NCBI RefSeq assembly: GCF_003334405.1
Contig: NZ_QOWM01000005.1
Strand: one strand, 5' to 3'
Length of the DNA stretch: 64,000 nucleotides
From: Escherichia coli
GTDB lineage: Bacteria > Pseudomonadota > Gammaproteobacteria > Enterobacterales > Enterobacteriaceae
Part shown: positions 32,947-61,378 of the stretch, piece by piece
Layout of the letters: every line of letters starts with the position of its first letter
Numbering within the stretch: position 1 is the first letter of the stretch
Made by a program: the position numbers and the translations under genes
The notes under the pieces: model-generated
What the model was told of the DNA's origin: nothing
The model's database searches: none
The model's input: the letters and a program-made list of their open reading frames with translations, nothing else

Positions 32947-33963
32947 ATGTCCACATTACGCCTGCTCATCTCTGACTCTTACGACCCGTGGTTTAACCTG
33001 GCGGTGGAAGAGTGTATTTTTCGCCAAATGCCCGCCACGCAGCGCGTTCTGTTTCTCTGGCGCAATGCCGACACGGTAGTGATTGGTCGCGCGCAGAACC
33101 CGTGGAAAGAGTGTAATACCCGGCGGATGGAAGAAGATAACGTCCGCCTGGCGCGGCGCAGTAGCGGTGGCGGCGCGGTGTTCCACGATCTCGGCAATAC
33201 CTGCTTTACCTTTATGGCTGGCAAGCCGGAGTACGATAAAACCATCTCTACGTCGATTGTGCTCAATGCGCTGAACGCGCTCGGCGTCAGCGCCGAAGCG
33301 TCCGGGCGTAACGATCTGGTGGTGAAAACAGTCGAAGGCGACCGCAAAGTCTCAGGCTCGGCCTATCGCGAAACCAAAGATCGTGGCTTCCACCACGGCA
33401 CTTTGCTGCTCAATGCCGACCTTAGCCGCCTGGCAAACTATCTCAATCCGGATAAAAAGAAACTGGCGGCGAAAGGCATTACCTCAGTGCGTTCCCGCGT
33501 GACCAACCTCACCGAGCTGCTGCCGGGGATCACCCATGAGCAGGTTTGCGAGGTCATAACCAAGGCCTTTTTCGCCCATTATGGCGAGCGTGTAGAAGCG
33601 GAAATCATCTCCCCGGACAAAACGCCAGACTTGCCAAACTTCGCCGAAACCTTTGCCCGTCAGAGTAGCTGGGAATGGAACTTCGGTCAGGCTCCGGCAT
33701 TCTCGCATCTGCTGGATGAACGCTTTAGCTGGGGCGGCGTGGAACTGCATTTCGACGTTGAAAAAGGCCATATCACCCGCGCCCAGGTGTTTACCGACAG
33801 CCTCAACCCCGCGCCGCTGGAAGCCCTCGCCGGGCGACTGCAAGGCTGCCTGTACCGCGCGGATATGCTGCAACAAGAGTGCGAAGCGCTGTTGGTTGAC
33901 TTCCCGGACCAGGAAAAAGAGCTACGGGAGTTGTCGACGTGGATAGCGGGGGCGGTAAGGTAA
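32947..33963 (+). CDS. lplA: Lipoate-protein ligase A, 338 aa
   Basis: Translation begins [57 protein letters not shown]... Confidence 0.96.
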
Positions 33964-33994
33964 CTCGCTGATTAAAATACCAAAGGAAGGGAAT

Positions 33995-34258
33995 ATGATC
34001 GATCTGGAAAACCAGGAGCGGGAGATTATCAATTTAATGTTAAGCCAGCGTATTTCCTGGCTAGCCGCCGTGCGTATCAGGCATAAATTATCGCTTGCTG
34101 AAGTAAGTAAAATGTTAGGTATCTCGATTAATTCTCTAAAACAGATCGAAAAGACGGAACGGCTTAGCTCAAACATCAAAAGCAAAATGGCAGAAATTTA
34201 TGGTTGTCCACCAGAGTTGCTGATATGCCCTTCCTGGATGACGGCTGAACATAAATGA
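33995..34258 (+). CDS. Hypothetical small DNA-binding protein with Cro/C1-type HTH motif, 87 aa
   Basis: ORF with a good Shine-Dalgarno (aaggaagg) 6 nt upstream of the ATG; residues LSLAEVSKMLGISINSLKQIE fit an XRE-type helix-turn-helix. No family assignment possible without a search. Confidence 0.5.
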   Translation: MIDLENQEREIINLMLSQRISWLAAVRIRHKLSLAEVSKMLGISINSLKQIEKTERLSSNIKSKMAEIYGCPPELLICPSWMTAEHK

Positions 34259-34355
34259 ATAGATTCGTGAATAGATACTTGAATGGATTTTATTTTCTAT
34301 CCATATGAAAAATAATAGTAAATCTATAAATCAGTTGCTATTGATGAATAGATAC
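34257..34355. repeat. Three direct copies of GAATAGAT(A/T)C (34257-34266, 34269-34278, 34346-34355) in an AT-rich segment
   Basis: Read directly; two copies abut the stop of the 87-aa ORF, the third sits just before the deoD terminator. Confidence 0.6.
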
Positions 34356-34386
34356 TAAAAAGCCGGAGCAGTCTCCTGCTCCGGCT
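34356..34386 (-). terminator. deoD rho-independent terminator (stem agccggagcag/ctgctccggct, U-run on minus strand)
   Basis: Perfect 11-bp stem with 4-nt loop about 30 bp downstream of the deoD stop, followed by TTTTT on the minus strand. Confidence 0.75.
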
Positions 34387-34418
34387 TAACACGACGTTCG
34401 CCTTTCAGCGAAACACAA

Positions 34419-35138
34419 TTACTCTTTATCGCCCAGCAGAACGGATTCCAGTGCGATTTTGATCATGTCGTTGAAGGTGGTCTGACGCTCAGCGGCAGTG
34501 GTCTGCTCGTGAGTGCGGATGTGGTCAGACACGGTGCAGATGGTCAGGGCTTTCGCGCCAAACTCTGCAGCGACGCCGTAGATACCAGCCGCTTCCATTT
34601 CCACGCCGAGGATGCCGTATTTTTCCATCACGTCGAACATTTCGCCGTCCGGAGAGTAGAACAGGTCAGCGGAGAACAGGTTACCCACGCGAGCATCAAC
34701 ACCCAGTGCTTTAGCCGCGTCTACCGCGTTACGCACCATGTCAAAGTCAGCGATAGCGGCAAAGTCATGGTCTTTAAAACGGATACGGTTAACTTTGGAA
34801 TCGGTGCAGGCACCCATACCGATAACGACGTCGCGCAGTTTTACGTGCGGCAGAACTGCGCCACAGGAACCCACGCGGATAATTTTCTTCACGCCGAAAT
34901 CGGTGATCAGTTCTTTGGTGTAGATGGAGCAGGACGGGATACCCATACCGTGACCCATTACGGAAATTTTGCGGCCTTTGTAAGTACCGGTGAAGCCCAG
35001 CATACCGCGAACGTTGTTCACTTCACGGGCATCTTCAAGGAAAGTTTCAGCAATATACTTCGCACGCAGCGGGTCGCCTGGCATCAAAACTACGTCAGCG
35101 AAATCGCCCATTTCTGCATTAATGTGTGGGGTAGCCAT
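34419..35138 (-). CDS. deoD: Purine nucleoside phosphorylase DeoD, 239 aa
   Basis: Translation begins [69 protein letters not shown]... Confidence 0.97.
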
Positions 35139-35163
35139 TGTTTTATCCTTATCAACATGTTTT

Positions 35164-48444: not shown

Positions 48445-49476
48445 ATGTCTGCATTTACCCCGGCAAGTGAAGTCTTGCTGCGTCACAGTGATGATTTCGA
48501 ACAAAGCCGTATTCTGTTTGCCGGAGACTTACAGGATGACCTGCCCGCGCGTTTAGATACCGCGGCCAGCCGTGCTCATACCCAGCAATTCCACCACTGG
48601 CAGGTGTTAAGCCGCCAGATGGGGGATAACGCCCGTTTTAGTCTGGTCGCCACGGCGAATGATGTCGCAGATTGCGATACGCTGATTTACTACTGGCCGA
48701 AGAACAAACCGGAAGCCCAGTTCCAGTTGATGAATTTACTTTCTCTGCTGCCGGTGGGGACGGATATTTTTGTCGTTGGCGAGAACCGCAGCGGCGTGCG
48801 CAGCGCCGAGCAGATGCTGGCAGATTATGCGCCGTTGAATAAAGTCGACAGCGCTCGTCGCTGTGGCCTCTATTTTGGTCGTCTGGAAAAACAGCCAGTA
48901 TTTGATGCGGATAAATTCTGGGGCGAATACAGCGTCGATGGCCTGACGATCAAAACGCTGCCGGGCGTGTTTAGCCGCGACGGTCTGGATGTCGGTAGCC
49001 AGTTGCTGCTCTCGACGTTAACTCCGCACACGAAAGGTAAAGTGCTGGATGTCGGCTGTGGCGCGGGGGTGCTTTCAGTTGCCTTTGCGCGCCATTCACC
49101 GAAAATTCGTCTCACCTTGTGCGATGTCTCTGCCCCGGCGGTAGAAGCCAGCCGTGCGACGCTTGCGGCCAACGGTGTTGAAGGTGAAGTCTTTGCCAGC
49201 AACGTCTTTTCCGAGGTGAAAGGTCGTTTTGATATGATCATCTCCAACCCGCCGTTCCACGATGGGATGCAAACCAGCCTGGATGCGGCGCAAACGCTGA
49301 TTCGCGGCGCGGTGCGTCATCTTAATAGCGGCGGCGAGCTGCGAATTGTAGCGAACGCCTTCCTGCCTTATCCGGACGTGCTGGATGAGACATTTGGCTT
49401 CCATGAAGTGATTGCGCAAACCGGGCGTTTCAAGGTGTATCGCGCCATTATGACCCGCCAGGCGAAGAAAGGTTAA
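48445..49476 (+). CDS. rsmC: 16S rRNA (guanine1207-N2)-methyltransferase RsmC, 343 aa
   Basis: ORF track translation with SAM-binding motif ([12 protein letters not shown]) and NPPFH catalytic motif. Confidence 0.95.
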
Positions 49477-49494
49477 GTATCCCGCCGCAAGCCT

Positions 49495-49655
<161 letters not shown>

Positions 49656-49707
49656 GTTTCCTGATGGACATTTTTCCAGCAATTACACCTCCGGCGATAA
49701 TTAACTA

Positions 49708-49735
49708 TTGACGAAAAGCTGAAAACCACTAGAAT
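49708..49735 (+). promoter_or_regulatory. Sigma70 promoter of the tRNA-Leu gene (-35 TTGACG, 16-bp spacer, -10 TAGAAT)
   Basis: Near-consensus hexamers read directly about 40 bp upstream of the mature tRNA 5' end. Confidence 0.6.
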
Positions 49736-49776
49736 GCGCCTCCGTGGTAGCAATTCTTTTTAAGAATTGATGGTAT

Positions 49777-49863
49777 GCGAAGGTGGCGGAATTGGTAGAC
49801 GCGCTAGCTTCAGGTGTTAGTGTCCTTACGGACGTGGGGGTTCAAGTCCCCCCCCTCGCACCA
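49777..49863 (+). tRNA. leuV: tRNA-Leu (anticodon CAG), 87 nt, CCA encoded
   Basis: Sequence gcgaaggtggcggaattggtagacgcgctagcttcaggtgttagtgtccttacggacgtgggggttcaagtcccccccctcgcacca has a cloverleaf with long variable arm; anticodon loop cuuCAGgug. Only one copy is present in the window. Confidence 0.95.
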
Positions 49864-49901
49864 ATTATCTTTACTTCCTTTCTTGTTTCTTCCCTGTTTT
49901 G

Positions 49902-50138
49902 TCATCCCTGATTCAAATTCACTATCATCAGCATGATGCCAGCAATAAGCGCCAGGCACGATGGTAGCAAAATGTAATGCCGCAACTGTTTGTGATACAG
50001 CATCACAGGCGTCAATACTAATCCCATCAGAATGACAATCCGCCACTGATCCGGCGATAAATCCGCATACATCAGCCCTGCAATCAGCAATCCCGGCAGC
50101 AACACTCCCCAGCCACTGCCCAGCATACGTTGCAACAT
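49902..50138 (-). CDS. yjjZ: Small inner-membrane protein YjjZ, 78 aa from MLQRMLGSGWGVLLPGLLIAG...
   Basis: ORF track 49902..50249; internal Met chosen to give the 78-aa form I recall. Confidence 0.65.
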   Translation of the reverse strand: MLQRMLGSGWGVLLPGLLIAGLMYADLSPDQWRIVILMGLVLTPVMLYHKQLRHYILLPSCLALIAGIMLMIVNLNQG

Positions 50139-50278
50139 GGTTTCATCTCTTTCATTGATAATGATAACCAATATCATATGATAATTTTTATCATTTGCAA
50201 GCCAGAGAAATCCCTTGCTATCGGGTAAACCTATCGCTAGGATTAGCAATCATTATCATTTAGATTACTATCCCGATT

Positions 50279-51067
50279 ATGGCCTATCGTTCCGCACCGC
50301 TCTATGAAGATATCATCTGGCGAACGCATCTCCAGCCACAGGATGCTGGGCTTGCACAAGCCGTACGTGCGACGATCGCCGAACATCGTGAACATTTGCT
50401 GGAGTTTATCCGTCTGGATGAACCCGCCCCGCTTCGCGCCATGACGCTGGCGCAATGGTCATCACCGAATACGCTAAGTTCCCTACTGGCGGTCTATTCC
50501 GATCATATCTACCGCAACCAACCAACGATGATCCGCGAGAACAAGCCGCTGATCTCACTGTGGGCACAATGGTATATCGGCCTGATGGTGCCACCATTAA
50601 TGCTGGCGCTGCTGACGCAGGAAAAAGCATTAGATGTGACGCCGGAACATTTCCACGTTGAGTTTCACGAAACCGGACGCGCCGCCTGTTTCTGGGTCGA
50701 TGTGTGTGAAGATAAAAACGCAACACTACATTCGCCGCAGCAGCGAATGGAAACGTTAATCAGCCAGGCGCTTGTTCCGGTTGTGCAGGCACTAGAAGCA
50801 ACGGGAGAGATTAACGGTAAACTTATCTGGAGCAATACCGGTTATTTGATCAACTGGTATCTGACTGAGATGAAACAGCTGCTCGGCGAGGCGACGGTTG
50901 AATCGCTGCGCCATGCCCTCTTTTTTGAGAAAACGCTCACGAACGGTGAAGATAATCCACTCTGGCGTACCGTGGTGCTGCGCGACGGCCTGCTGGTGCG
51001 CCGCACTTGCTGCCAGCGTTATCGCTTACCGGATGTGCAGCAATGTGGCGATTGTACGCTGAAATGA
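50279..51067 (+). CDS. fhuF: Ferric-siderophore reductase FhuF (C-terminal 2Fe-2S Cys cluster), 262 aa
   Basis: Translation ends ...CCQRYRLPDVQQCGDCTLK with the C-C-x10-C-x2-C motif. Confidence 0.93.
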   Translation: MAYRSAPLYEDIIWRTHLQPQDAGLAQAVRATIAEHREHLLEFIRLDEPAPLRAMTLAQWSSPNTLSSLLAVYSDHIYRNQPTMIRENKPLISLWAQWYIGLMVPPLMLALLTQEKALDVTPEHFHVEFHETGRAACFWVDVCEDKNATLHSPQQRMETLISQALVPVVQALEATGEINGKLIWSNTGYLINWYLTEMKQLLGEATVESLRHALFFEKTLTNGEDNPLWRTVVLRDGLLVRRTCCQRYRLPDVQQCGDCTLK

Positions 51068-59952: not shown

Positions 59953-60081
59953 GATTCGGCTCTCCATTTTTTGTTGCCTTAGATATCAATGAAAATGAAA
60001 AATGGCAGCGGAACGGAAAATCTGTTTTGTGAAAACACACGCATAAAAATGTTTTAAATCGGGTTTTAATGGACTCACAAG

Positions 60082-61276
<1,195 letters not shown>

Positions 61277-61378
61277 TGAGCGGTAGTAAAGTCCTAAAAC
61301 TTTAACCTGCCGTTAATGTCAACCTTGCGTAATGCACAATTACGTAAACAATTAAAATTATAAATATAGGAGTCCGGC

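Follow-up and report, generated by a model that had tools for sequence, protein, structure and literature searches.

In Escherichia coli K-12, the tRNA-Leu1 operon leuV-leuP-leuQ (leuQPV) consists of three tandem genes that lie between rsmC and yjjZ and are transcribed toward yjjZ from the leuV promoter. No Rho-independent terminator can be recognised in the operon, for which termination by Rho is presumed; its tRNAs are separated and matured by RNase P and not by RNase E, and cells without PNPase and RNase II accumulate a precursor that is longer by about 40 nt (Mohanty and Kushner, 2007; PMC2190699). Changes in tRNA gene number have also been described outside E. coli; in Pseudomonas fluorescens SBW25, two reports describe large-scale tandem duplications involving serTGA that were selected in the laboratory (PMC7661048; PMC10954465). 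Here, we describe the leuV-leuP-leuQ locus in a 64,000-nucleotide stretch of an E. coli genome (assembly GCF_003334405.1, contig NZ_QOWM01000005.1), referred to throughout as the window, which carries one gene at this position and in which the loss of the other copies coincides with a switch between two E. coli haplotypes.

A single tRNA was detected by ARAGORN in the whole 64-kb window, a tRNA-Leu of 87 nt with anticodon cag, and Rfam family RF00005 matches it with 48.5 bits against a gathering score of 29. The gene has a cloverleaf with a long variable arm and an encoded CCA (3' end ...CGCACCA). Its promoter combines a -35 hexamer TTGACG (49708-49713), a 16-bp spacer and a -10 hexamer TAGAAT (49730-49735), followed by a GC-rich GCGCC discriminator, and the 60 bp immediately 5' of the tRNA, which include the -10 hexamer and the discriminator, are identical in K-12 and all relatives examined. 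From the 3' end of the tRNA to the yjjZ stop there are 38 bp. ARAGORN, Rfam, the promoter scan and the open reading frames thus agree with an earlier reading made from the letters of the window without database searches (hereafter the sequence-only reading), which had placed one tRNA-Leu gene with its promoter between rsmC and yjjZ. Around the tRNA, the genes follow the order rimI and holD (-), rsmC (+), the tRNA, yjjZ (-), fhuF (+), bglJ and yjjQ (-), with the features of the locus listed in Table 1.

Table 1. Features at the tRNA-Leu(CAG) locus, in window positions.
Feature	Position	Strand	Basis
rsmC, 16S rRNA m2G1207 methyltransferase; 5' neighbour, TBE6-type haplotype	48445-49476	+	343-aa ORF
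REP (repetitive extragenic palindrome) cluster between rsmC and tRNA promoter	49480-49650		Rfam naRNA4
Haplotype switch interval, TBE6-type upstream to FDAARGOS_1277-type downstream; holds promoter and tRNA	49585-49893 (309 bp)		Mismatch profiles
leuV-type sigma-70 promoter	49708-49735	+	Promoter scan, 10 of 12 matches
tRNA-Leu(CAG), sole copy	49777-49863	+	ARAGORN; Rfam RF00005; K-12 identity
tRNA trailer, pyrimidine-rich, G-poor, without hairpin	49864-49901	+	Terminator scan, base count
yjjZ (DUF1435 protein), convergent 3' neighbour, FDAARGOS_1277/ST10-type haplotype	49902-50138	-	ORF and annotation in relatives

Both neighbours are familiar from other strains: rsmC is annotated at the equivalent place in GF124.3, K-12 and O157, with the exact RsmC protein present on many E. 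coli contigs, and the yjjZ DNA matches GF124.3 and FDAARGOS_1277 without a difference, the product in these strains being WP_001362956.1. The gap between rsmC and the tRNA measures 300 bp in the window, 267 bp in K-12 and 189 bp in O157, and the length of its REP cluster is strain-variable. On the minus strand of this gap, Rfam reports a match to naRNA4, a nucleoid-associated, REP-derived RNA, at 49555-49637 (65.4 bits against a gathering score of 59.5).

Alignment to the K-12 locus shows what has been lost. MG1655 has three tandem tRNA-Leu genes here, as the sequence-only reading had stated, with spacers of 28 bp and 34 bp; copies 1 and 3 share one sequence, from which copy 2 differs by one base (C48T). 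The window tRNA is 87/87 identical to copies 1 and 3 and carries the C48 of the outer copies, not the T48 of the middle one. It is joined to the 5' flank of copy 1 on one side and to the trailer of copy 3 on the other, so that the window differs from the K-12 array, point substitutions aside, by the clean loss of one repeat period of 236 bp (copy 2 with both spacers). The spacers of three-copy arrays read AAAACCACGTTGATATTGCTCGCACTGG and AACGAGGCGATATCAAAAAA(A)GTAAGATGACTGT, and neither of them (28 bp and 33/34 bp, respectively) is present between the window tRNA and either flank. The two loci are therefore alike in their position between rsmC and yjjZ, their orientation toward yjjZ, the leuV promoter, the 60 bp upstream including the leader, the mature sequence of the outer-copy tRNA and a near-identical G-poor trailer, and differ in that K-12 has three genes where the window has one, the C48T middle copy and both spacers being gone.

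The gene names at this locus are to be read with care. We take the name 'leuV promoter' to imply that leuV stands first, as does the leuV-leuP-leuQ order given in the sequence-only reading. PMC2190699 instead writes leuQ leuP leuV, with leuV last and followed by the trailer CCAAUUAUC, and the trailers listed there, checked against the K-12 array sequence (L002:1945-2267), give the order P-Q-V. The annotation of O157:H7 Sakai calls its single gene leuQ.

The C48, the copy-1 promoter side, the copy-3 trailer and the net loss of 236 bp all fit a collapse by recombination between identical tandem copies, the explanation that the sequence-only reading had thought simplest. We consider it likely that the window holds a real single-copy allele of leuV-leuP-leuQ, formed when the identical outer copies underwent homologous recombination. 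Slipped pairing of the first 87-bp copy with the third, or an unequal crossover between them, would take out 236 bp, namely both spacers together with the middle copy, and the junction seen in the window would result wherever in the 87 identical bp of copies 1 and 3 the crossover fell. As with serTGA in SBW25, tRNA gene dosage would thus have been altered by recombination and not by point mutation; there, however, the changes are large gains selected in the laboratory, whereas here it is a 236-bp loss in a native tandem array of natural isolates.

Mismatch profiles against close relatives show that the array lies where the window changes haplotype. From ~33.0 kb to 49,893 the window is close to TBE6, EC931 and ATCC 43886 (mostly 0-5 mismatches per kb, with one bin of 10), with 0-1 mismatches per kb to TBE6 between 43 and 49 kb. 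From 49,585 to 64 kb it has at most 3 mismatches per kb to FDAARGOS_1277, and up to about 56 kb this downstream part is also near-identical to an ST10-like haplotype common to about 200 genomes. On the opposite side of the array, each of these references diverges from the window by about 1-3%. The last mismatch to FDAARGOS_1277 is at 49584 and the first mismatch to TBE6, EC931 and ATCC 43886 at 49894. The similarity of the window to these relatives also switches near 7, 17.5 and 33 kb, giving a mosaic. Its TBE6-like parts lie at ~7-17.5 and 33-49.9 kb and its FDAARGOS_1277-like part at 49.6-64 kb, and the stretches at 1-7 kb and 18-33 kb differ by 0.5-2% from each of the three references used in this comparison. 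The best identity over 24 kb among complete genomes is 99.4%, so the window's own lineage is absent from that collection, and no second genome with the same mosaic was found in the contigs sampled by exact RsmC identity (10 sampled; 36 read of many thousand).

Several features elsewhere in the window also vary among these strains. An IS5-family element (ISKpn26-like) at 60080-61281 lies between lgoD and lgoT, a site common to TBE6, EC931, ATCC 43886 and FDAARGOS_1277, which have no lgoR there; ST10-like strains have an IS1 plus lgoR instead. The yjjJ (hipA-like toxin) region at 33962-35150 is unusually far from ST10-like strains, about 93% identical with gaps, and the window is without the IS200C and ISKpn26 insertions that TBE6 has beside deoD.

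Three-copy arrays are present in TBE6, EC931, ATCC 43886, FDAARGOS_1277, 26561 and AZ155, all with C48T in the middle copy and with spacers that differ at most by a single A in the A-run of spacer 2. Because the nearest relatives of both flanks all have three copies, the single copy of the window is derived and recent in its lineage, polarity being judged within E. coli. Comparison with reference genomes thus speaks against one copy as the norm of the lineage and upholds the sequence-only reading on this point. An import of the single copy ready-made with the downstream haplotype was considered and rejected as the main reading, since the inspected carriers of that haplotype (26561, AZ155 and FDAARGOS_1277) have three copies. 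The third copy of ATCC 43886 (L013:12012-12097) is 86 nt long, its run of eight C shortened to seven, which may reflect either a true frameshift-type mutation or an error in sequencing the homopolymer; the C8 run is an indel hotspot of leuP, leuQ, leuV and leuT in mismatch-repair-deficient lines (PMC8510543).

To place the window among other E. coli, complete genomes were searched with junction sequences. A 361-bp single-copy junction query found fewer than three copies at the locus in ~509 of 5,426 complete genomes, where contiguous or near-contiguous coverage was counted and the 509 include two-copy arrays whose pieces were joined by the tool. Of the 5,426 genomes, 4,977 have the junction 'tRNA end, spacer 1, tRNA start' and 449 lack it; for the spacer 2 junction, the figures are 4,984 and 442, respectively. 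If all contracted genomes fall among the 509, about 382 would be single-copy and about 127 two-copy, which is an estimate and not a count. About 91% of the complete genomes, spread over the phylogroups, have three copies. Rare expansions are also seen, a few genomes having spacer junctions at two or three sites. In all, 21,100 occurrences of the 87-bp tRNA were counted in the 5,426 genomes (median 4 per genome, range 1-10). A 597-bp query with the K-12 three-copy sequence was rejected as a counter of arrays, since single-copy genomes also reach 90% coverage when non-contiguous pieces are joined; its figure of 5383 genomes at 80% or more was set aside and the spread of its listed rows alone was used.

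Polymorphism in copy number at the locus is thus frequent and recurrent, and the contractions observed far outnumber the expansions. Single copies are found in the O157:H7 references Sakai, EDL933, EC4115 and TW14359, in the unrelated strains GF124.3, PapRG-06-5, U90 and ETEC1746, and in CP162185.1, and two-copy alleles in K99B, XH993, TR01 and MJ-T. Withers and colleagues are said to have compared tRNA gene sets between E. coli strains in 2006. These distributions bear on the reverse history, in which a single copy was ancestral in the window lineage and the array expanded in K-12-like strains. Variation of copy number within the species is all that speaks for such a history; it is opposed by the prevalence of three copies across phylogroups and by the three-copy arrays, with shared spacers and middle-copy marker, in all nearest relatives of both flanks, and we regard it as highly implausible.

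One of the single-copy alleles is that of O157:H7, in which the single-copy state is fixed in the lineage. Like the window, it has the promoter, one tRNA-Leu(CAG), the trailer of the last copy and yjjZ, while its flanks are 98.6% identical to those of the window over 361 bp and 97.6% over 3.4 kb. Because the flanks differ and the nearest relatives of the window have three copies, the comparison points away from shared descent, and the two alleles are of independent origin. In O157:H7 PV15-279, the argX-hisR-leuT-proM operon (L015:1501-1813) contains a tandem leuT pair where K-12 has one leuT, for a total of three tRNA-Leu(CAG) genes, one at the yjjZ locus and two at leuT; this duplication could be dosage compensation.

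The sporadic single- and two-copy alleles (GF124.3, CP162185.1, PapRG-06-5, U90, ETEC1746, K99B, XH993, TR01 and MJ-T) are contractions at the same array. Across the whole 361-bp junction region, GF124.3 and the window are 100% identical, which had suggested that GF124.3 might belong to the window lineage; this was ruled out, as it is 1-2% diverged upstream. GF124.3 has the ST10-like haplotype on both sides of the tRNA, a simple collapse, whereas the window switches haplotype at the tRNA.

This difference raises the matter of how the loss and the switch are related. Since the deletion is at the switch between two haplotypes that both normally have three copies, it may have been made by out-of-register import. 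One end of an imported DNA segment would have paired out of register within the array, producing the deletion and the haplotype switch together. Over about 31 kb the blocks are otherwise clean, with a single haplotype switch, and it is there that the deletion lies; by our own post hoc estimate the chance of such a coincidence under random placement is roughly 2%, or ~4% when the approximately five switches of the window are counted. A single event is, we think, the most economical reading, and we hold it tentatively, at somewhat less than even chances.

The alternative of two independent real events, in which an in-register import ended in or near the array and an intrachromosomal deletion or replication slippage followed later, draws on the collapsed arrays of GF124.3 and CP162185.1, which have no haplotype switch and show that simple collapse happens alone. 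The two haplotypes are moreover identical from 49585 through most of the array, and such a perfect-identity tract of ~400 bp would attract crossovers in any case. Against this, two rare events would have to fall in the same 309-bp interval, and the sampled relatives all keep three copies. We find a two-event history rather doubtful, while giving it serious weight.

Both histories take the single copy to be real, and an assembly artefact has to be weighed against them. With three true copies, an assembler could take the path from upstream through one tRNA to downstream and drop the 236-bp loop as a tiny contig; in a stronger version, two E. coli strains sequenced together would have been joined at their shared repeat into a chimeric contig. 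The outer copies are perfect repeats of 87 bp, and we infer that assembler words shorter than 87 bases would see such a loop. A chimeric join would also be expected to place the haplotype switch exactly at the collapsed repeat, and all closest relatives of the window have three copies. That assemblies can go wrong here is suggested by the draft GCA_949281595.1 (L019:5333-5818), in which five tRNA-Leu calls at the locus are garbled. Its array has two pairs fused head to tail without spacers and one junction with N, and looks like an assembly or polishing artefact.

Other observations favour a real allele. The same single-copy junction is found in hundreds of finished genomes, including Sakai and EDL933, and is thus a real biological state. 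The further similarity switches near 7, 17.5 and 33 kb are expected from ordinary E. coli recombination, and a mixed-strain assembly would rarely yield clean blocks of at least 14 kb. The window is also contiguous through its 1.2-kb IS5-family element, the kind of element that short-read assemblies usually fail to cross, which suggests that the assembly was good enough to handle a 236-bp repeat unit. On balance, we judge an artefact of either kind unlikely.

The real single-copy allele, our preferred reading, keeps the signals for expression that are known from K-12. In a scan of the plus strand from 49400 to 50400, no hairpin-plus-T-run terminator was found, in line with the sequence-only reading, which had seen no clear intrinsic terminator in the 38 bp between the tRNA and yjjZ. 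Because the K-12 trailer is nearly the same, differing at 3 of 38 positions by substitution, the missing terminator would seem to be normal and not peculiar to the strain of the window. The 40 nt 3' of the tRNA are pyrimidine-rich and contain 3 G, a composition consistent with Rho termination, and the trailer is presumed to combine Rho-dependent termination with a region trimmed by exonucleases. By analogy with the K-12 work, the strong leuV promoter, which is kept, would give a monocistronic precursor, the tRNA being preceded by a leader of some 30 nt and followed by about 40 nt of trailer. Transcription would be stopped by Rho in the trailer, which is unstructured and poor in G; RNase P would then generate the 5' end of the tRNA, with 3' exonucleases trimming the other. 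Unlike in K-12, RNase P would not be needed to part neighbouring tRNAs.

The single-copy locus by itself matters little, being an ordinary example of an already known kind of polymorphism. Its sole expected consequence is a lower dosage of the tRNA that reads CUG, the most used codon of E. coli, and the reduction from three genes to one could lower the supply of tRNA-Leu(CAG) and affect maximal growth rate. The occurrence in O157:H7 of the same contraction together with a tandem leuT duplicate elsewhere hints at selection on dosage. Comparisons of annotations should expect copy-number polymorphism at the leuV locus and bear in mind that assemblies can err there. The coincidence of the deletion with the haplotype junction is mildly new. 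If the reading of a single event is general, perfectly conserved tandem tRNA arrays would be preferred endpoints of recombination between lineages, and tRNA gene dosage would shift as a by-product of gene flow. The haplotype junction at this array offers a small case in which a possible influence of conserved repeats on the endpoints of recombination can be tested.
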